This document shows positions 12,899 to 39,169 of a stretch of DNA of 64,000 nucleotides, piece by piece (the stretch's first letter is position 1; each line of letters opens with the position of its first letter). Source of the DNA: Escherichia phage vB_Ec-G1; the sequence record PQ433349.1. One strand, 5' to 3'. Position numbers and translations under genes: made by a program. A model generated the notes under the pieces. That model worked only from the letters and a program-made list of their open reading frames with translations, was not told where the DNA came from and searched no databases.

Positions 12899-13458
12899 AC
12901 ACCCTCGCTACGTAGCTGTTGAAAAGACTTAGCCATTGCATCTTTTGTTGATAAGATAGGTTTAAAATCTTCGTCAAAAATCATATCGAAGCCCCAATCA
13001 ATCCCTATATCAGGATCATCCCAACGTAAACTTTGTTCGCTGGAAGGGTCGTATGGAGTTGTGCATTTGTATTCGAAGATAGCATCCATACTCAACACTA
13101 TAAAACCATGTGCCAAACCAGGTGGAAGCCAGAACTGTGTATGGTGTCGTGCACGAAGAACAACACCGTCCCAAGCACCGTAAGTAGGACTATCTTTACG
13201 TAGGTCTACAGCGAAATCCAATACTTCCCCACTTACACAACGAACAAGCTTACCTTGCGGATTATTTGTTTGAAAGTGCATTCCTCGCAAAACACCGAAG
13301 TTTGATTTAGACATGTTATCTTGAACGAAAGTTTGTCTACCAATGATATCTTCGTATTTTTGTTCATTATATGTTTCTAAAAAGAAACCACGATCATCTT
13401 TATAAACGTCTGGTTTGATAATTACCGCACCTTCAATTTTTGTTTTTTCTACTTTCAT
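12892..13458 (-). CDS. rmlC: dTDP-4-dehydrorhamnose 3,5-epimerase
   Basis: [44 protein letters not shown] motifs; ATGA overlap with rmlA stop. Confidence 0.85.
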
Positions 13459-14333
13459 TTTCTCTCCGCTAATTTGAGCAGGTATTGCCCGTACTCTGTT
13501 TTCTTCAGTGAGTTTCCATGATAGACCAAAGTCTCTAAAGAAATCCACCCTTTTTTGAAAGCAATTTCTTCCAGGCACGCAATCTTCAATCCTTGACAGT
13601 TCTCAATAGTCTGCACGAATTGACCAGCTTCCATCAGACTGGCGTGTGTTCCTGTGTCAAGCCAAGTAAATCCTCGTCCGAGAACTTCTACTTGTAACTT
13701 CCTGTCTTCGAGGTAGCTGCGATTGATATCGGTGATCTCCAGTTCTCCACGCGCGGAAGGGGTTACTTCTAATGCACGTTGAATAACAGAGTTATCATAG
13801 AAATACAAACCTGTGACAGCATAATCTGATTTAGGATTTTCAGGTTTCTCTTCAATAGAAATAGCTTGATGATTACTCCCAAATTCAACCACACCGAATC
13901 GTTCAGGATCTTTCACCAAATACCCGAAGATACAAGCTCCGCCACAAACATCTACCATCTCACTGGCGTTAATCAGTAGTTTACCAAAGCTTTGTCCGAA
14001 GAATAGGTTGTCACCTAAAATAAGAGCAACAGAGTCTTCTCCGATAAAATCTTTACCGATGATGAAAGCGTCCGCAAGACCTCGTGGCTCGGATTGGATT
14101 GCATAAGTGAGTTTTATCCCAAACATAGACCCATCTCCGAGAAGATACTCAAAGTCTTCCTGATCGCCTGGTGTGGTGATGATTAAGATATCCTTAATGT
14201 CAGCCAACATCAATACCGATAAAGGGTAGTAGATCATGGGTTTGTCATACACAGGGAGCAATTGCTTGCTCACACTGCGTGTTACCGGATGAAGGCGGGT
14301 TCCACTTCCTCCCGCCAAAATAATACCTTTCAT
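13455..14333 (-). CDS. rmlA: glucose-1-phosphate thymidylyltransferase
   Basis: [40 protein letters not shown] pattern; start at ATG 14333 with AAGGAGG SD. Confidence 0.9.
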
Positions 14334-14341
14334 AGCCCTCC

Positions 14342-15334
14342 TTAAATCTTCCCACTCCACCATTGAGGGTTGTTTAAGTACCATTCAATCGTTGAGTAGA
14401 GATCTTGTTCAAATGTAGAGTTTGCACTCCAACCCAGTTCAGACTCTATCTTAGAAGGATTGATTTCATAACGCAAGTCATGTCCTTTACGATCTTCAAC
14501 AAAAGTTATCAAGTTGGAAGAAGGGTAGGTTCCTGCTTCTGGATGTACAGCATCCATGTAGTCACAAACCATATAGATGATCTCCATATTGGTTTTGGGA
14601 TTACGTGTTCCCACATTATACGTTTGACCTGGTTCTCCACCTGTTGCCACTTGAAGAATAGCTCGCGCATGATCCTCAACAAAAAGCCAGTCTCGCACCT
14701 GATCGCCTTTACCATACACCGGAATCTCTTTATTCGTCAAGATACTTGTGATGATTTTTGGGATCAGCTTTTCTGGATGTTGATAAGGTCCAAAGTTATT
14801 GGAGCAGTTGGTTATCACAACAGGTAAACCGTAGGTACGGTACCAAGCTTTCACAAGATGGTCAGATGCTGCCTTAGACGCACTGTACGGGCTTGAAGGG
14901 GCATAAGCTGTCTCTTCGGTAAAGGGAACGCCAGAGTCTGCCATATCGCCGTACACTTCGTCTGTGGAGACGTGTACGAACATCTTCAGTTTATTTTTTG
15001 GGAGGAGCCTTGCAGCTTCCAATAAATTGTATGTGCCAATAATATTGGAGTCGATGAAAACTCGTGGATTCTTGATAGAATTATCCACATGACTCTCTGC
15101 CGCTAAGTGAATGATGAAATCGGGATTGCACTCTACTACTAAACTTTTGACCTGGGTTTCGTTTGCCAAATCTGTTATGCTTAGTTTAACGTGAGTGATA
15201 TCGCCTACATTCTCAATATCTGCTGCATAGCCCATCTTATCAACGACAAAAACTTCGTTATTGGGATCTTGACAAAGAGAGCGCACCACGGCACTCCCAA
15301 TAAAACCAAGACCACCTGTTACCAGATAGCGCAT
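14342..15334 (-). CDS. rmlB: dTDP-glucose 4,6-dehydratase
   Basis: [10 protein letters not shown] Rossmann motif, YSASKAASD catalytic Yxxx[18 protein letters not shown]. Confidence 0.9.
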
Positions 15335-15343
15335 CAGTTCTCC

Positions 15344-15670
15344 TTACCAGACATGTTGAGAAATAATAGTTTCCGTTTTAATGTTATATTTTTCAAGTAG
15401 CTTTGCATAGGCTTCTTTTGCATTCTCATTCAATTGCTCAAGATCTACAGCTATGCTTCCTTCTCCGCCTTCTAAATCAAGGCCATATATGCAATAAGAC
15501 TCATCCGCATCGTAGAAAGGAGAGATGCGGCTTAAGTCAAGACCTTCTTGTAAGAACCAGTTAAAATCTCCGTCAAATTCTTCTTCAATTCTAGGATCTT
15601 CTCCTACAGCCTCTTCCCACTTATTAAAAGGTGCACCCTGTAACATACGCCATTCGATATCAATACCCAT
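15344..15670 (-). CDS. hypothetical acidic protein (108 aa)
   Basis: Minus ORF. Confidence 0.5.
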   Translation of the reverse strand: MGIDIEWRMLQGAPFNKWEEAVGEDPRIEEEFDGDFNWFLQEGLDLSRISPFYDADESYCIYGLDLEGGEGSIAVDLEQLNENAKEAYAKLLEKYNIKTETIISQHVW

Positions 15671-15824
15671 TTTTCATCTCCTCCTCTTCTTGAGCAGCTT
15701 TAATAATTGCTTCATAAATATCGTAAGCAATGCCTCCACAACATCTAGCTTCGAAAGCTATTGCTTCTGCAATGTGATCTGTTAATTCTCGTGGAATGCG
15801 AACATACTCTTTTTCACTCTCCAT
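15660..15824 (-). CDS. small hypothetical protein (54 aa)
   Basis: Unlisted short ORF MESEKEYVRIP...; start overlaps upstream stop. Confidence 0.3.
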   Translation of the reverse strand: MESEKEYVRIPRELTDHIAEAIAFEARCCGGIAYDIYEAIIKAAQEEEEMKNGY

Positions 15825-15966
15825 CTTCTACCTCCAACCCTTCTTTTTCAAAGACTACTACTCGTCCCTCACCATGACAATTCAGGCAAGGAAATGTTAC
15901 CATAATTTCCACTTCCATCTGTCCCGTCCCACCGCACACAGGACAAAAAATAAGTTTTTCAGCCAC
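15814..15966 (-). CDS. small zinc-ribbon protein (50 aa)
   Basis: Unlisted short ORF with GTG start after GGAGGA SD; CPVCGG...CLNCHG four-Cys pattern. Confidence 0.35.
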   Translation of the reverse strand: MAEKLIFCPVCGGTGQMEVEIMVTFPCLNCHGEGRVVVFEKEGLEVEDGE

Positions 15967-16175
15967 TATTCCTCCTTAATTATTTCAAATTTGGCAACAC
16001 CATTTACAATAATATGACCACAAGACATAACTCCTAGCCAAGGATCGCCGTTTTTCTTCAGGCGTTTACCGAATACATCACAAAAACCATTCTTCATTTC
16101 AGAGGCTTCATAAGAAGCCCCTTTATCAAAAACGTCTTTGAATGTGTCGATTATACCAACACATTTCAAAATCAT
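15966..16175 (-). CDS. hypothetical protein (69 aa)
   Basis: Small minus ORF. Confidence 0.45.
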   Translation of the reverse strand: MILKCVGIIDTFKDVFDKGASYEASEMKNGFCDVFGKRLKKNGDPWLGVMSCGHIIVNGVAKFEIIKEE

Positions 16176-35359: not shown

Positions 35360-35472
35360 TTCTTACCTCCTTTGCTGTCAAAATAGCTTACCAGAACATC
35401 GTGAACCACACAAATGGCGAAAATCAGAACAATTGTTGCCAGGACTGGGTGCTCACTAATTAGTGCTATCAT
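35356..35472 (-). CDS. small hydrophobic peptide (38 aa)
   Basis: Unlisted ORF MIALISEHPVLATIVLIFAICVV... with GGAGG SD; ATGA overlap with next gene. Confidence 0.3.
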   Translation of the reverse strand: MIALISEHPVLATIVLIFAICVVHDVLVSYFDSKGGKK

Positions 35473-35779
35473 CTTTAACTACCTCCAGTTGCCTTTCGAG
35501 TTTAACTTTGTTTGAGAACTGATAATGACACAGCTTACAATCAATGTCAACAATCTGATCGTGATTTAACCCTACAATTTTAACTTCCTTTGCACCATCC
35601 CACTCTAAGTATTCGAAGTCTGATAAACAACTACTCTTACTTAAAATAAAATCCACCTGTTGCCACTCCACCTGCATATCATCGATATGATAAGCTGCAC
35701 AGAATACATCATGGTAGTAAAATGCTATCATAACCATCTTTTCATCAATAGCAACTACTTCCCGCCTTGTAAATCTCAT
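35456..35779 (-). CDS. hypothetical protein (107 aa), first gene of minus-strand block
   Basis: TAGGAGG SD before ATG 35779; adjacent to divergent control region. Confidence 0.5.
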   Translation of the reverse strand: MRFTRREVVAIDEKMVMIAFYYHDVFCAAYHIDDMQVEWQQVDFILSKSSCLSDFEYLEWDGAKEVKIVGLNHDQIVDIDCKLCHYQFSNKVKLERQLEVVKDDSTN

Positions 35780-36039
35780 TCTAGCCTCCTAAACGCGTCT
35801 CTGACGCACTTTTTATATATAAGATGATAAATCACCTTACCTCGTAAGTAAACTTGCTCTACGAGCCTCTTATGAAGCTTGTGTTATAGGCTATACTATT
35901 GCTACCTGCTTAAGCAAGGTTTTTGCACACAGAAAATAATTTTAATAAAACTCTTGACTTTTGTGTTCGAAGTATGCTACCCTAGAAATCTATTAACGAG
36001 CGCAGCGAGTTAAGGTTTTAGGTTGTTGATGTAGTACTC

Positions 36040-36245
36040 TGTACTCAAGTACTGTACTCCGTACTAGATTAATAATTATTAAATATTAATAATAAATAAT
36101 TATTAGATCTAACAAACAGGTACAGTGTATCAGAACTGGTACGTACAGATCAACTTCTATCAATTAAAAAATAAAATAATAAATTATTATAAATAATAGT
36201 TGATCTATAGATCAGTATGAAGTACAGTACGGAACATCTTAACAA
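36040..36245. repeat. AT-rich dyad-symmetric region with GTAC-containing repeats (candidate origin/divergent control region)
   Basis: CTGTAC copies on left, GTACAG copies on right, palindromic AATAATTATT core, GATCAACT/AGTTGATC inverted pair. Confidence 0.5.
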
Positions 36246-36260
36246 GAATGGAGGTGTGCA

Positions 36261-36446
36261 ATGATTAGTGAGAATCCGTGCAAATGGCATCATGTGCCTA
36301 TTAAAGATTGTATGTCTTGTAATCCACGTTCTATTTATAACATTGCATCTTATGACGATGACAATGTGTTAGACGATGATGAAGGCTGGGAGGATTTAGA
36401 TTGGACTGGTTATGAAACCAAAAAGGATAAAATTATTCCTAGTTGA
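36261..36446 (+). CDS. hypothetical acidic protein (61 aa)
   Basis: GGAGGTG SD; first plus-strand gene after control region. Confidence 0.5.
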   Translation: MISENPCKWHHVPIKDCMSCNPRSIYNIASYDDDNVLDDDEGWEDLDWTGYETKKDKIIPS

Positions 36447-36483
36447 CTTAAGATATCCTTCGTGCTAAACTAGAAGTGAGGAG

Positions 36484-36735
36484 ATGCCGATCACTCCCCA
36501 TTTGGGGTTCGAAGGATATATGCAAAATAGTTTTTATTTTAGGTGCCGTGCTTGTAATAGGCATTTGACAAACCACTCCAGACGTGATAAAAATGGAGTC
36601 ATCAAGGAATCAGACCTCTGTTCTATTTGCACAGGTTTGGCTTTTGATGATAGTCCCGAAAGGGTTTATCAGCATCAATGTATAACAGACGTTCTCGTGT
36701 CAAACTTGGTAGAGGACGAACAACTAACAGATTAG
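36484..36735 (+). CDS. hypothetical Cys-rich protein (83 aa)
   Basis: GAGGAG SD; CRACN...CSIC Cys pairs. Confidence 0.5.
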   Translation: MPITPHLGFEGYMQNSFYFRCRACNRHLTNHSRRDKNGVIKESDLCSICTGLAFDDSPERVYQHQCITDVLVSNLVEDEQLTD

Positions 36736-36743
36736 GAGGAACA

Positions 36744-36992
36744 ATGTCTCTATTAGAAAAACACGTGTTTGAAGATGGTAACGGCAATGCAGTTTTTCTT
36801 TTCCATCCAGAAAAATACACATCTGAAAACAATGGTACAACTTCTATTGTAATCACTAAAGATGTTAAAGTTATTGATTTCTTGGCTCTGATGCGAGAGA
36901 TGGATCTTGAAATTAATACTTTTAACGCAGAAGCTTTGGTTGTTGCTCTTCTGGAAAAGAAAGATAGTGAAGAAGTAGCAGAATATGCTTAA
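36744..36992 (+). CDS. hypothetical protein (82 aa)
   Basis: AGGAGG SD before ATG 36744 (shorter than the track ORF 36678..36992). Confidence 0.5.
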   Translation: MSLLEKHVFEDGNGNAVFLFHPEKYTSENNGTTSIVITKDVKVIDFLALMREMDLEINTFNAEALVVALLEKKDSEEVAEYA

Positions 36993-37238
36993 ATAACTAT
37001 TGACAAACGTATCCTTCATATGTTAGGATACGTTCATCAAGTGTGGTAACAGGGTCGTTGACTTTTGTTAAGAGGGGCTTGCACTGCGGTAGTGTTAGAG
37101 ACTACTTCTTCAGAGGTTAGCTACCAAAGAGGAAAAGGAATAGTCTCGGCTCAAGAACTTTTACGCTGAAAGTTGGGCTTGGTCTTAGAGAATGTAGCGG
37201 TTCTCTGCAATTGTCAGCGTCTCTGTTACCACATTTAT

Positions 37239-37313
37239 GGCCCTGTAGCTCAATGGGAGAGCTGTCGGCTCATAACCGATAGGTAGCTGGATCGAAACCA
37301 GCCAGGGCCACCA
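37239..37313 (+). tRNA. tRNA-Met (anticodon CAT; elongator or Ile2-type)
   Basis: Acceptor GGCCCTG/CAGGGCC, anticodon loop CTCATAA, T-arm, encoded CCA. Confidence 0.75.
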
Positions 37314-37315
37314 AC

Positions 37316-37390
37316 GTCTTTATGGTGTAATGGATAGCACAGGAGTCTTCTAAACTCTTAGTCAAGGTTCGATTCCTTGTAAAGACACCA
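37316..37390 (+). tRNA. tRNA-Arg (anticodon TCT)
   Basis: Acceptor GTCTTTA/TAAAGAC, anticodon loop CTTCTAA, T-loop TTCGATT, CCA. Confidence 0.8.
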
Positions 37391-37586
37391 GAACATTTTA
37401 ACATGAATTAGCTCAAGTGATTTGAACCCACTACTGATCATGGTGGCAGAGAATGAGGCAAGTATGTCAGACATTATAAACAAAGGCCACGGTTATATTA
37501 GAAGACATAAATGCTCGAAGAGCACCGTTCGTGGAGAACGGGGGTTGGTGGAGTCACCATTCATGGTAAAATGTTTTAAAAAACTA

Positions 37587-37615
37587 TTGACAACAAACAT
37601 TATTTTATGTTAGAT
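37587..37615 (+). promoter_or_regulatory. candidate sigma70-type promoter upstream of tRNA-Ser
   Basis: TTGACA, 17-nt spacer, TTAGAT. Confidence 0.4.
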
Positions 37616-37624
37616 TATAAATAT

Positions 37625-37715
37625 GGAAGGGCAAATCGACGTGGCGACGAAAACGGTCTTGAAAACCGCCGAGCTTGAAAGAGCCTTGGGAGTTCGACTC
37701 TCCCTCCTTCCGCCA
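37625..37715 (+). tRNA. tRNA-Ser (anticodon TGA), type II
   Basis: Acceptor GGAAGGG/TCCTTCC, anticodon loop CTTGAAA, long variable arm, CCA. Confidence 0.7.
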
Positions 37716-37740
37716 GATTGGTAGATTGGTAGATTGGTGA
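37716..37740 (+). repeat. tandem direct repeat (gattggta x3) overlapping tRNA 5' end
   Basis: gattggtagattggtagattggtg read directly. Confidence 0.6.
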
Positions 37741-37813
37741 AATGGTAGCCACAACAGTTTGCTAAACTGTAGTCGGAAACGGCGTGTAGGTTCGAGTCCT
37801 ACATCTACCGCCA
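37728..37813 (+). tRNA. tRNA-Ser (anticodon GCT), type II
   Basis: Acceptor GGTAGAT/ATCTACC, anticodon loop TTGCTAA, long variable arm, CCA. Confidence 0.7.
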
Positions 37814-37943
37814 AGTTCTTTTTAATATAGCTTACTTTAATAGAGTAAATTTTCGGCAGATGGCCCCCATCATCTTACCGATACCTCATAGTTAGTGGTG
37901 CGAACACTGGCTATTTTAAAAAGAATTTAAATATTAGTATTTA

Positions 37944-38031
37944 GGTGAGTTAATTCCGTAGGGGTAGCGGGGCAGACTGTAAATCTGTTATCATTGCGAT
38001 TCGGGTGGTTCGACTCCATCACTCACCACCA
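37944..38031 (+). tRNA. tRNA-Tyr (anticodon GTA), type II
   Basis: Acceptor GGTGAGT/ACTCACC, anticodon arm GCAGA-CTGTAAA-TCTGT as in bacterial tRNA-Tyr, discriminator A, CCA. Confidence 0.7.
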
Positions 38032-38037
38032 AATTAA

Positions 38038-38123
38038 GATGAGTTGGCTGAATGGTTTAAGCAGCGGACTGTTAATCCGTGTTCGAAAGAACAATATAGG
38101 TTCGAATCCTATACTCATCGCCA
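38038..38123 (+). tRNA. atypical tRNA with anticodon GTT (Asn) on a Tyr-like type II scaffold
   Basis: Acceptor GATGAGT/ACTCATC, anticodon loop CTGTTAA, extra GTTCGAAAGAAC hairpin before T-arm, discriminator G, CCA. Confidence 0.5.
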
Positions 38124-38130
38124 GAATTAT

Positions 38131-38207
38131 GGACTTGTAGAGTTAAGGTAAACCCCCAGTCGCCAATAGGCTTCTGGAATTGCAGGTATCGAATCCTGCC
38201 GAGTCCC
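38131..38207 (+). ncRNA. tRNA-like element without canonical anticodon arm (possible pseudo-tRNA)
   Basis: Acceptor-like GGACTTG/CGAGTCC and T-arm-like GCAGG-TATCGAAT-CCTGC, but no 5-7-5 anticodon arm with U33 could be folded. Confidence 0.3.
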
Positions 38208-38213
38208 AGCATT

Positions 38214-38288
38214 GCTCCTATAGTATAATGGCTATTACAACGGTTTTGTAATCCGTGGATCTCTGTTCGATTCAGTGTGGGAGCACCA
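38214..38288 (+). tRNA. tRNA-Thr (anticodon TGT)
   Basis: Acceptor GCTCCTA/TGGGAGC, anticodon loop TTTGTAA, T-loop TTCGATT, CCA. Confidence 0.7.
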
Positions 38289-38561
38289 ACACAACATTAA
38301 GAGCACTGTGATTGATCGTCGTATCCTGTGCACAAGGTCTGCTCGAAAGACAGTGTTCTTAGTATTGTGTTGATCACAAAAAGAGTCACCCGAAACTTGA
38401 CCGGAGTAGGGTTGGATGGGGCAAAATGAGAAGCGGCTCTCCCATCGACAGCAACGAAGAATAATATTTGACTTTGGTTTTGTATTATTTTAAGTTAGCT
38501 TACCGAACGTAGGGCTAGTCACCCAACGGGATACTCGTCACTGTCCCAATCAATAAAAGTC

Positions 38562-38591
38562 TTGACAACAAATAGTAAAATGTAGTATAGT
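38562..38591 (+). promoter_or_regulatory. sigma70-type promoter upstream of tRNA-Gly
   Basis: TTGACA, 18-nt spacer, TATAGT; tRNA starts about 12 nt downstream. Confidence 0.6.
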
Positions 38592-38602
38592 AAATATATA
38601 GG

Positions 38603-38676
38603 GCGTTCTTGGTGTAGCGGTAGCATTCCGTCCTTCCAAGTCGGCGGCACGAGTTCGATCCTCGTAGAACGCTCCA
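38603..38676 (+). tRNA. tRNA-Gly (anticodon TCC)
   Basis: Acceptor GCGTTCT/AGAACGC, anticodon loop CTTCCAA, T-arm ACGAG-TTCGATC-CTCGT, CCA. Confidence 0.7.
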
Positions 38677-38774
38677 AATTATTTAATAAAGGGTTGCCAG
38701 AAAACTTTCTCTTTTACTCATGGTTTTCTCCTTCTCTCACACTTCTTCTGGTTGCCCTTCATTAAATGATTTAT

Positions 38775-38850
38775 TGGTTTGTAGTGTAGTCCGGTAGCAC
38801 ACGACACTTTGACTGTCGTAGGTTTGGTTCAAATCCAGACAGACCAGCCA
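38775..38850 (+). tRNA. tRNA-Gln (anticodon TTG)
   Basis: U1:A72 acceptor TGGTTTG/CAGACCA, anticodon arm CGACA-CTTTGAC-TGTCG, CCA. Confidence 0.75.
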
Positions 38851-38855
38851 TATAA

Positions 38856-38932
38856 CGGAGTTTAGCTCAGTTTGGTAGAGCATACGCTTTGGGAGCGTAG
38901 GGTCGCAGGTTCGAATCCTGCAATTCCGACCA
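38856..38932 (+). tRNA. tRNA-Pro (anticodon TGG)
   Basis: C1:G72 acceptor CGGAGTT/AATTCCG, anticodon arm TACGC-TTTGGGA-GCGTA, T-arm GCAGG-TTCGAAT-CCTGC, CCA. Confidence 0.8.
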
Positions 38933-38938
38933 ATTAAA

Positions 38939-39012
38939 TGTTTCGTAGTTCAATGGTAGAACCCACGACTGATAATCGTGAGACACAAGTTCGATTCTTG
39001 TCGAAACAACCA
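38939..39012 (+). tRNA. tRNA-Ile (anticodon GAT)
   Basis: Acceptor TGTTTCG/CGAAACA, anticodon arm CACGA-CTGATAA-TCGTG, T-loop TTCGATT, CCA. Confidence 0.75.
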
Positions 39013-39014
39013 GT

Positions 39015-39085
39015 TTCCCGTTAGACTTACAGGATAAGAGTTCCACAGCTTATTGTGATGCTGGTTCGAATCCAGCACGGGATAC
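39015..39085 (+). ncRNA. degenerate tRNA-like element (intact T-arm, no canonical anticodon arm)
   Basis: T-arm GCTGG-TTCGAAT-CCAGC and acceptor pairing TTCCCGT/ACGGGAT present; no loop with U33 and purine-37 found. Confidence 0.3.
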
Positions 39086-39090
39086 ATAAT

Positions 39091-39169
39091 AGCGGGATAG
39101 AGGAGTCTGGTCGTCCTCGCCAGTTTCATATGCTGGAGATCATCGGTTCAAATCCGATTCCCGCCTCCA
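39091..39169 (+). tRNA. tRNA-Met (anticodon CAT), second copy, A1xC72 mismatch
   Basis: Anticodon arm CCAGT-TTCATAT-GCTGG, T-arm ATCGG-TTCAAAT-CCGAT, CCA; first acceptor pair unpaired. Confidence 0.6.

Follow-up and report, generated by a model that had tools for sequence, protein, structure and literature searches.

The non-coding DNA between positions 36040 and 36245 of the window, by which we mean the whole 64,000-nucleotide stretch of Escherichia phage vB_Ec-G1 that was analysed (PQ433349.1), is best regarded, from its sequence and that of its relatives, as a promoter-and-leader control region, consisting of a transcribed leader and a second promoter for the arm of the genome that carries the tRNA and virion genes. 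Copies of the tetranucleotide GTAC are clustered in this region far beyond chance, and the best-supported reading of these repeats is that they form a clade-specific, constrained cis-element. It is possible, although we would place it somewhat short of an even chance, that the operator-like binding of a protein to this element gates the second promoter, P_R, as well as read-through from an upstream promoter, P1.

The window is derived from a Phapecoctavirus, a phAPEC8-like E. coli myovirus of the subfamily Stephanstirmvirinae with genomes of about 150 kb, and about 70 Phapecoctavirus records match positions 35400-37000 at 95% identity. For whole-genome statistics, the complete genome of a close relative, ASO2A (151.6 kb), was rebuilt. 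From position 1 to 35779 every long ORF is on the minus strand (nucleotide metabolism, ligases, exonucleases and dTDP-rhamnose genes). The plus-strand ORFs, from 36261 on, comprise small ORFs, a cluster of ten tRNA genes (37239-39169), terminase, which lies about 4.4 kb downstream of the repeat region, and virion genes, with many intrinsic terminators further downstream in this arm. The repeat region sits in the 481-bp gap that separates these two arms. The phage also encodes a family-A DNA polymerase and a gp4-like primase-helicase, which are T7-like replisome genes. The first plus-strand gene, identified by ORF reading, has an RBS, GGAGG, and an ATG (36249..36263, plus strand) and encodes a 61-aa protein that matches no Pfam family, belongs to a PHROG family without known function and is nearly restricted to the genus; an IMG/VR query with this protein returned a single locus. 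For the ten small proteins that flank the region, Pfam likewise gave no match and the PHROG assignments are all to families of unknown function, and no DNA-binding protein, ribbon-helix-helix or other, is recognisable among them. No sequence record gives the 481-bp gap a function, although three Danish records annotate a 'repeat_region' of 55 bp, placed either on one arm of the dyad or on the other, and the literature that we searched contained no description of this region and no transcript data for the Stephanstirmvirinae.

The initial annotation had taken this stretch to be the strand-switch point. The gene starts on which it relied, 35779 on the minus strand and 36261 on the plus strand, are right, but the flagged stretch does not appear to be the place where transcription diverges. 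This can be seen from a comparison of five lineages: the main clade, the divergent Phapecoctavirus phiWec188, the Justusliebigvirus PaulScherrer, Klebsiella phage KP2025 and Citrobacter phage Tr1. All share a skeleton that starts with a leftward gene with its RBS and a UTR hairpin, followed by a P_L1-like site, about 100 bp, P1 and a second hairpin, and that ends, after a variable 100-190 bp, with an AT-only block and P_R (TTGAYY-17-TAsAsT), the first plus-strand gene following about 32-34 nt further on. This skeleton implies that transcription diverges at about 35853-35953, between the predicted promoters P_L1 and P1, and that the flagged DNA would represent the rightward leader together with P_R.

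P_L1 (35824..35852, minus strand) is a leftward promoter-like sequence, TTTACT-17-TATCAT, with 9/12 consensus matches in the promoter scan. It is predicted to serve the first minus-strand gene, with a 5' UTR containing the hairpin GCGTC-TCT-GACGC (35795-35807) and the RBS AGGAGG, and phiWec188 and PaulScherrer both retain its ACCTTACCTC/TATCAT block. P1 (35930..35983, plus strand) is a predicted rightward sigma-70 promoter in which an A/T UP-like tract (35932-35950) precedes a -35 hexamer, TTGACT (35954-59), an 18-nt spacer and an extended -10, TGcTACCCT (35975-83); its predicted start is near 35990. The sequence TTGAC(A/T)...TGnTACCCTA of P1 is invariant across the five Stephanstirmvirinae lineages. 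Because this strong and conserved promoter lies upstream, the flagged DNA would be as much a leader as an operator region.

The second rightward promoter, P_R (36200..36228, plus strand), was missed by the promoter scan and is predicted from a reading of the sequence as TTGATC (36200-05)-17-TACAGT (36223-28), with 8/12 consensus matches. Its spacer contains a perfect 14-bp palindrome, TGATCTATAGATCA (36201-14), and its -11 A is the adenine of the GTAC at 36222-25. Relatives possess TTGACT or TTGACC, a 17-nt spacer and TAGAGT or TACACT at the position of P_R, again about 32-34 nt ahead of the start codon, and a paralogue, TTGATCT-17-TATCAT, with a similar 5' UTR, is present at the second divergent region of ASO2A. 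A tentative leftward promoter-like sequence, P_L2 (36124..36153, minus strand), reads TTGATC (36153..36148)-18-TACACT (36129..36124); by eye it has 8/12 consensus matches and it falls under the scan threshold. Its counterpart in phiWec188, TTGATC-18-TACTAT, occupies the same position, and none is recoverable in Tr1 or PaulScherrer. Between 35400 and 36700 there are 11 promoter-like sites, compared with 5.3 +/- 2.4 in shuffles. The region shows the pattern of divergent sigma-70 promoters with UP elements, namely hexamers spaced by 16-18 nt on both strands, with A/T tracts at -40 to -60.

A hairpin follows P1 by about 12 nt (35993..36013, plus strand), with the stem TTAAC (35993-97)/GTTAA (36009-13) and the loop GAGCGCAGCGA (35998-36008). 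In 12 sequences the loop, GAGCG-N1-2-AGCGA (11-12 nt), is invariant and the stem varies with compensation, the variants including TTAAC/GTTAA, TACC/GGTA, CCTATC/GATAGG and others. In the alignment of the hairpin 72% of the cells are paired, compared with 60% in shuffles (3/500), and the covariation score is 0.49 versus 0.28 (1/500 shuffles), with slid controls giving 0.11-0.23. The module of P1 plus hairpin occurs three times in ASO2A, at 59.87 kb (plus strand), 136.87 kb (minus) and 20.1 kb (minus), the last copy likewise in low-stability DNA, and it is also found in IMG/VR contigs. Rfam 15 gave no match between 35700 and 37250 with E-values up to 1. A hairpin present thrice per genome is a candidate antitermination or loading signal.

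Two further elements of the initial annotation, a palindromic AT core and an inverted pair, are both present. The core consists of AATAATTATT, which occurs twice (36071-80 and 36095-104) within an imperfect, AT-only palindrome of 45 bp with AGAT...AGATCT borders and 18-nt arms that are 89% complementary (AT block 1, 36066..36110, strandless). AT block 2 (36156..36199, strandless) is a UP-like A/T tract directly upstream of the P_R -35, and a block in this position is present in 5/5 lineages. The two AT blocks are 72% direct repeats of each other at a distance of 104 bp, which indicates that the extra AT block of the main clade came from a 104-bp duplication. Among all 40-bp windows of the 151.6-kb ASO2A genome, AT block 1 is the least stable and AT block 2 the second least stable, and at window sizes of 150 and 200 bp this region is again the least stable duplex. 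The inverted pair is made up of GATCAACT at 36148-55 and AGTTGATC at 36198-205, the latter corresponding to the -35 hexamer of P_R. As a perfect 8-bp pair it is peculiar to the window; 11/12 aligned relatives have ACTTGATC, so that a 6-bp core, TTGATC/GATCAA, remains. The pair is best read as two -35 hexamers, TTGATC, that face outward, back to back, with an AT-rich UP-like block between them. For the rightward hexamer this reading is supported by its position, by its conservation in other lineages and by the paralogue elsewhere in the genome, and for the leftward hexamer it is tentative.

Of all 4-base palindromes, GTAC is the one most depleted in the window, where it occurs 49 times with 181 expected (ratio 0.27). 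Ten of these 49 fall within 36034-36230, and for the 226 bp over which they were counted 0.14 would be expected (Poisson P = 6e-16). For AGTAC/GTACT, there are 9 in the array region, compared with an expectation of 0.07. Similarly, the complete ASO2A genome has 162 GTAC sites with 463 expected, and the array is the sole site with more than four GTACs per 250 bp in its 151.6 kb. The CTGTAC-type repeats on the left and GTACAG-type repeats on the right that were noted initially are found by direct reading exactly where they had been placed. The left array (group L, 36033..36065, plus strand) contains five GTACT units, GTACTCT GTACTCAA GTACT GTACTCC GTACTAG; its GTACs start at 36034, 36041, 36049, 36054 and 36061, all as GTACT and two as CTGTAC, with spacings of 7, 8, 5 and 7 bp and no helical phasing. 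The central group (group C, 36119..36147, strandless) is composed of GGTACAG at 36119-25 (GTAC at 36120) and GGTACGTACAG at 36138-48 (GTAC at 36139 and 36143), and the right pair (group R) is AGTACAGTAC, with GTACs starting at 36222 and 36227. The order of elements is thus group L, AT block 1, group C, GATCAA, AT block 2, TTGATC with the 14-bp palindrome, and group R. The left array is present in one copy per genome, is found only in Phapecoctavirus and is 100% identical over 43 bp in 53/68 records.

A 17-nt inverted repeat joins the two ends of this arrangement. Its left arm, GTACTGTACTCCGTACT (36049..36065, plus strand), is partnered by AGTATGAAGTACAGTAC (36215..36231, plus strand), which spans the GTACs at 36222 and 36227 and overlaps the spacer and -10 of P_R; the arms form 15 Watson-Crick pairs and one G-T pair, thus pairing at 16/17 positions, and this pairing is used in the minimum-energy folds of both DNA and RNA. 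As single-stranded DNA, 36020-36245 folds with -31 kcal/mol, compared with -14.4 +/- 2.9 in shuffles (z = -5.8), and as RNA, 36011-36262 folds with z = -3.6 (0/200 shuffles fold as well). GTAC is self-complementary, so that the same repeats also give strong RNA or single-strand DNA structure, which could be their real function. Several other identities were considered for the repeats. The frequency of AGATCTAAC as a recurring motif is at the level of chance, and a resemblance to the LexA box fails by eye on spacing and orientation. The TrpR operator consists of inverted GNACT half-sites, GTACT-N8-AGTAC; the left array is made of direct repeats, and its only GTACT...AGTAC pairs have 2- or 9-bp spacers.

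Comparison with relatives, proposed in the initial annotation as a check, shows that the intergenic region is about 98-99% identical in some 60 genomes, whereas identity is about 95% for 1.6 kb that includes the flanking genes. The expected conservation is thus present, yet it does not separate an origin from the other readings. To the shared skeleton the main clade has added the inserted GTACT array and an additional, duplicated AT block, both of which are absent from the more distant lineages. Within the clade there are deletions in the dw-ec (13 bp), nieznany and EP57 records, that of nieznany removing about 36125-36193 (~69 bp) and with it the central GTAC group and most of AT block 2; some of these may be assembly errors. 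Point losses of GTAC are seen in phAPEC8 and anhysbys, and the copy number of TTAAGGTTT ranges from 1 to 3 among records. In phiWec188, AGATCT palindromes are found where the main clade has GTAC, including inside the P_R spacer, and this swap looks like an exchange of operator specificity.

GTAC sites do not last long in this clade. When the window is compared with ASO2A or dw-ec, 21-27% of them differ, a result that is the same in both directions, and the median for other 4-mers is 7-8%; GTACs outside the array turn over about three times faster than is typical. Between the window and ASO2A, 0/10 array GTACs and 13/39 of the others differ, a contrast that is marginal (Fisher P = 0.045). In the BI-EHEC record 62-68% of GTAC sites differ, and nearly all of these changes replace the G of GTAC by A, on one strand or the other, with some insertions of 1-2 nt even in coding DNA. 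This genome was assembled from Nanopore reads only (PMC8686590), so the changes are most simply explained as base-calling errors at a modified motif; the KKP 3954 record has the same type of damage within the array. The dw-ec genome, which was processed through a pipeline identical to that of BI-EHEC (PMC8752677), shows no excess of GTAC errors (21-24%, the baseline) despite carrying the same methyltransferase gene. This control suggests that the modification of GTAC is most likely added by particular hosts, and we infer that GTAC-specific restriction-modification within the host range most likely drives the depletion of this word.

The methyltransferase is a phage gamma-class N6-adenine enzyme with motifs I and IV (EPSAGEGAF, NPPF), which has no Pfam, NCBIfam or PDB match. 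Together with an adjacent 143-aa ORF, its gene lies between those for the DNA polymerase and the primase-helicase. Both are present in 64/64 array-bearing records and absent at that locus from phiWec188 and Justusliebigvirus, a co-occurrence that amounts to a single clade-level event. As the modifier of GTAC or reader of the array, the phage's own enzyme is weakened by the dw-ec control, in which the same gene and the same pipeline give baseline errors. Vequintavirus has a homologue that is 54% identical, and in that genus the depletion of GTAC is mild (0.59). The cluster in which GTAC is densest there (5 per 250 bp) falls within 620 bp of non-coding DNA, 2 kb upstream of tRNA genes, where it adjoins three 21-bp dyad repeats and an AT block. 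As an independent test of the array, this cluster is suggestive but marginal.

The initial annotation had suggested an operator array for a regulator of divergent transcription. Sigma-70-type promoter-like elements are indeed present and two of them are overlapped by GTAC, although the details and the position differ from what was proposed. Group R lies on the -10 of P_R, so that repeats overlap promoter core elements, the GTACs at 36120 and 36139-46 overlap the tentative P_L2, and the five left units are at +45 to +75 of P1. In the mechanism that we propose, the GTAC units would be recognition sites for a DNA-binding protein, probably encoded by the phage. Bound to the three GTAC groups, this protein would act as a gate on P_R and would either block read-through from P1 or modulate it, and the array might thereby time the expression of the tRNA and virion arm, with the AT blocks perhaps serving as UP elements. 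The array persists while GTAC is purged genome-wide, which argues that the repeats are needed, and the variation of repeat copy number in viable phages is as expected of redundant binding sites. The unphased spacing of 5-8 bp counts against an operator.

The initial annotation offered a replication origin as its other reading, and we consider a transcription-primed origin of the T7 or T4 oriF/oriG type to be unlikely but a live rival, given a T7-like replisome and a weakest duplex into which P1 fires. On this hypothesis the P1 transcript would enter the AT blocks, acting as a DNA unwinding element, an R-loop would prime the T7-like polymerase, and the GTAC groups beside the AT blocks would be the binding sites of an initiator or helicase loader. 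The two least stable 40-bp windows and the least stable 150- and 200-bp windows of the genome are all here, the well-predicted P1 is aimed at AT block 1, about 80 nt downstream, GTAC groups alternate with AT blocks, and the phage encodes the family-A polymerase and gp4-like primase-helicase that such an origin would use. The three P1-hairpin modules per genome, with the 20.1-kb copy in low-stability DNA, recall the multiple origins of T4. The two gene arms diverge here and, as the initial annotation would have predicted, there is a local minimum of cumulative GC skew, but this inflection does not discriminate. In ASO2A the cumulative skew falls to minima at 61 kb (the repeat region) and at 139 kb, the second being the lowest point of the genome, and peaks at 24 kb and at 101-103 kb. 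It turns at 4/4 transcription switches and therefore cannot locate an origin; the same coincidence of skew turns with changes in transcription direction has been reported for rV5 (PMC3606486).

Other observations also weigh against an origin. DnaA boxes (TTATNCACA, at most one mismatch) number 102 in the window with 88.6 +/- 9.2 expected, which is the level of chance; a single one of them, at 35921, falls in the intergenic region, and 36020-36260 contains none. Origins of the iteron type have three or more iterons of 17-22 bp in helical phase; here, the 5-bp cores are 5-8 bp apart, short and unphased, and no DnaA cluster accompanies them, which speaks against an origin of the iteron or DnaA type. 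Neither the GTAC array nor AT block 1 is present in related lineages, a deletion of about 69 bp in the nieznany record takes out most of AT block 2, and UP elements explain AT blocks upstream of a -35 equally well. A more specific version, namely an origin of new design confined to this clade, in which a hairpin-bearing promoter of host type primes in the weakest duplex and GTAC heptads land the initiator, we regard as distinctly improbable. Such an element could also read the methylation history of the infecting DNA, since hosts with GTAC restriction-modification would methylate these very sites, including the -11 A of P_R.

The dyad might instead act in RNA. In this case the P1 leader would pair with the sequence overlapping P_R to form a long-range helix enclosing the AT-rich part, which could be processed by RNase III or could stabilise or attenuate the leader of the tRNA/virion operon, and GTAC would merely be this clade's version of the helix sequence. 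We think this rather unlikely. Consistent with it are the 16/17 pairing of the arms, the covarying P1 hairpin, which shows that RNA structure matters in the leader, and inverted repeats of 12-18 nt, unrelated in sequence, that connect the leader with the core of P_R in phiWec188, KP2025 and Tr1. The folding of KP2025 (z = -2.5), like that of the window, lends it further support, but the values for phiWec188 (-1.6) and Tr1 (-1.2) are not significant and PaulScherrer is without such a repeat (z = 0.0). Within the clade, the variants T36024C, T36026G and, in phAPEC8, T36050C in the helix arms are uncompensated, Rfam has no matching family, and one helix needs fewer than five direct GTACT units plus a central group.

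It is doubtful that the repeats have no function and are simply a tandem repeat made by slippage, together with the 104-bp duplication, in a tolerant spacer. Ten extra GTACs would add little restriction risk to a genome that retains about 150, the inserted array is limited to one clade, unit-sized deletions and copy changes occur (13 bp in dw-ec; 1-3 copies of the unit named above), individual GTACs have been lost in several records, and the direct repeat between the AT blocks points to duplication. However, this cluster is the only one in a genome from which GTAC is actively being purged, its 43 bp are identical in 53/68 records, the intergenic region is better conserved than the genes beside it, and the GTACs coincide with promoter cores, with the left and right copies in inverted register.

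In BME3, a phage of the sister genus, direct terminal repeats of 342 bp (PMC12210895) lie where its record starts. Non-coding DNA of 1.5 kb at that record start matches 5.1-5.8 kb of ASO2A, in the non-coding part of the early arm and about 54 kb away from the repeat region, and not 59.9-60.2 kb; by analogy with BME3, a genome terminus or pac site here was rejected as improbable. A methylation-sensing or phage P1 pac-like packaging site, read by its N6-adenine methylation state and possibly set by the phage's own methyltransferase, is very improbable, since the layout of motif clusters flanking a central stretch, the modification of GTAC in at least one virion DNA preparation (BI-EHEC), the gene in all array-bearing records and the GTAC adenine at the -11 of P_R are offset by a modification that looks host-derived, by BME3 ends that map far away and by a co-occurrence that reflects one event.

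As a whole, these results favour a control region of promoters and leader in a group of phages, Phapecoctavirus and the rV5 and phi92 relatives, that rank with the E. coli phages most frequently isolated and used in therapy and for which the literature that we searched contains no mapped transcription programme or replication origin. The coordinates gained are those of four predicted promoters, a conserved hairpin, the weakest duplex of the genome and a unique repeat array that resists the purge of its core word. A strongly avoided word that is concentrated in one non-coding spot may help to find constrained cis-elements in phage genomes.

Four known systems may be compared with this region. 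At the pac site of phage P1 the point of cleavage is flanked by clusters of the hexamer TGATCA/G with Dam sites; here too, two clusters of a methylatable palindrome surround a centre of about 150 bp, with terminase about 4.4 kb downstream. Unlike phage P1, the sister genus has defined terminal repeats elsewhere, and GTAC methylation is apparently host-dependent. The primary origin of T7 consists of the promoters phi1.1A/B and an AT-rich region, and oriF and oriG of T4 of a middle promoter and a downstream unwinding element. The region resembles these in having a promoter that leads into the genome's most easily melted DNA, in a phage with T7-like replisome genes, but P1 is of the host sigma-70 type, the AT blocks are exactly where UP elements would be, and they are flanked by short palindromic repeats that the T7 and T4 origins lack. 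The omega protein of pSM19035, a ribbon-helix-helix protein, binds operators of 7-10 contiguous 7-bp units in direct or inverted orientation. The array is like these heptads in its contiguous units of about 7 bp, in both orientations, at or near promoters, and differs in its irregular spacing of 5-8 bp and in a motif that is a palindromic tetramer plus T. Finally, the region may be set beside the E. coli rrn and tRNA-operon promoters and the nut sites of lambda. The GTAC array is without a counterpart in rrn or lambda nut regions, and there is no clear boxA and no N-like or Nus-recruiting protein identified; the loop of the hairpin, GAGCG-N1-2-AGCGA, is 11-12 nt long, unlike the boxB pentaloop. 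The likeness lies in the tandem rightward sigma-70 promoters predicted ahead of a tRNA cluster, in A/T tracts at -40 to -60 of both P1 and P_R, as in rrn promoters, in the numerous intrinsic terminators further along the arm, and in a promoter-proximal hairpin with a conserved loop and a covarying stem, as in the boxB/boxA of rrn leaders and the boxB of lambda nutL and nutR.

Sister lineages of these phages avoid different tetranucleotides. In the main clade GTAC stands at 0.28-0.35 and CTAG at 0.54-0.65; in the lineage of the divergent Phapecoctavirus phiWec188 the depletion of GTAC is mild (0.67) and CTAG is missing altogether, with none observed in 50 kb of that phage (LC739537.1, 1-50000; L025) where 74 are expected. 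Stretches L003 and L006 were also included in this comparison. A second GTAC cluster in the window, weaker than the array that precedes the tRNA genes, consists of five sites in 140 bp (14835-14974) and lies within the gene for dTDP-glucose 4,6-dehydratase. Around it (13000-16000) the G+C content is 0.42 versus 0.38, and this stretch, which carries dTDP-rhamnose genes, looks like imported DNA in which the purging of GTAC would still be incomplete.

A two-gene insert, located outside the window on the minus strand between the genes for DNA polymerase and primase-helicase (108233-109468 of the close relative ASO2A, MZ726793.1; L019, 20234-21469), was found in 64 of 64 array-bearing Phapecoctavirus records and is absent from this locus in phiWec188 and in Justusliebigvirus. 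One of its genes encodes a gamma-class N6-adenine methyltransferase with the motifs EPSAGEGAF...NPPF, for which a Pfam search returned no hit, and the other is a 143-aa ORF with no assigned function. Vequintavirus carries a homologue at 54% identity.

The Nanopore-only assembly of the related phage BI-EHEC (OL505078.1; L008, L015) was compared at the GTAC sites of the window, as was KKP 3954 (OR067838.1; L017). BI-EHEC has ATAC or GTAT at 62-68% of these sites, with small insertions at some, against a median of about 7% for other 4-mers. In dw-ec, processed with an identical pipeline, differences at GTAC occur at the baseline rate. These rates point to a modification of GTAC that certain hosts confer, and to deposited genomes that carry errors specific to this motif.

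The predicted rightward promoter at 35954-35983 forms part of a promoter-hairpin module (35954-36013), in which TTGACT-17/18-TGnTACCCTA is followed about 12 nt downstream by a hairpin with a covarying stem and an invariant loop, GAGCG-N1-2-AGCGA. There are three copies per genome, the others in ASO2A lying at about 136.87 kb and 20.1 kb, both on the minus strand. The module is spread across the Stephanstirmvirinae and is also present in IMG/VR loci (L030-L032, L036, L039, L040). It had no match in Rfam and no description in the literature searched; it might serve as a signal for antitermination (nut-like) or for loading. Directly after the hairpin, a short unit, TTAAGGTTT (36010-36020), is present in one to three tandem copies among relatives (UP17, Ro121lw, anhysbys).

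Early genes in the early arm of ASO2A (1-5 kb and 146-151 kb, outside the window) are organised in cassettes, in the order consensus TTGACA-17-TAnnnT promoter, conserved G+C hairpin (cacGTAGGGCGGG...CCCGCC) and RBS.

The product of the first minus-strand gene (35456-35779, minus strand; 107 aa) shares only about 80% identity with that of most Phapecoctaviruses, whereas identity reaches 98-99% in the intergenic DNA next to the gene, which suggests that alleles were exchanged up to a boundary at the gene start. The tRNA cluster (37239-39169) comprises ten genes, compared with 10-12 in relatives; tRNA-Ser(TGA) and tRNA-Tyr, present in ASO2A, are missing from the window, and in Nepoznato an HNH endonuclease gene replaces tRNA-Gln.

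In a Vequintavirus (MG065690.1; L028, 33270-33890), the tRNA cluster is preceded, at a distance of 2 kb, by a 620-bp non-coding region. Its G+C-rich stretch of about 270 nt looks structured; an Rfam search of the region gave only a sub-threshold hit. The region contains three 21-bp dyad repeats (CTGTCCGTnAynCGGACAC) and an AT block, and the densest GTAC cluster of MG065690.1 falls within it.
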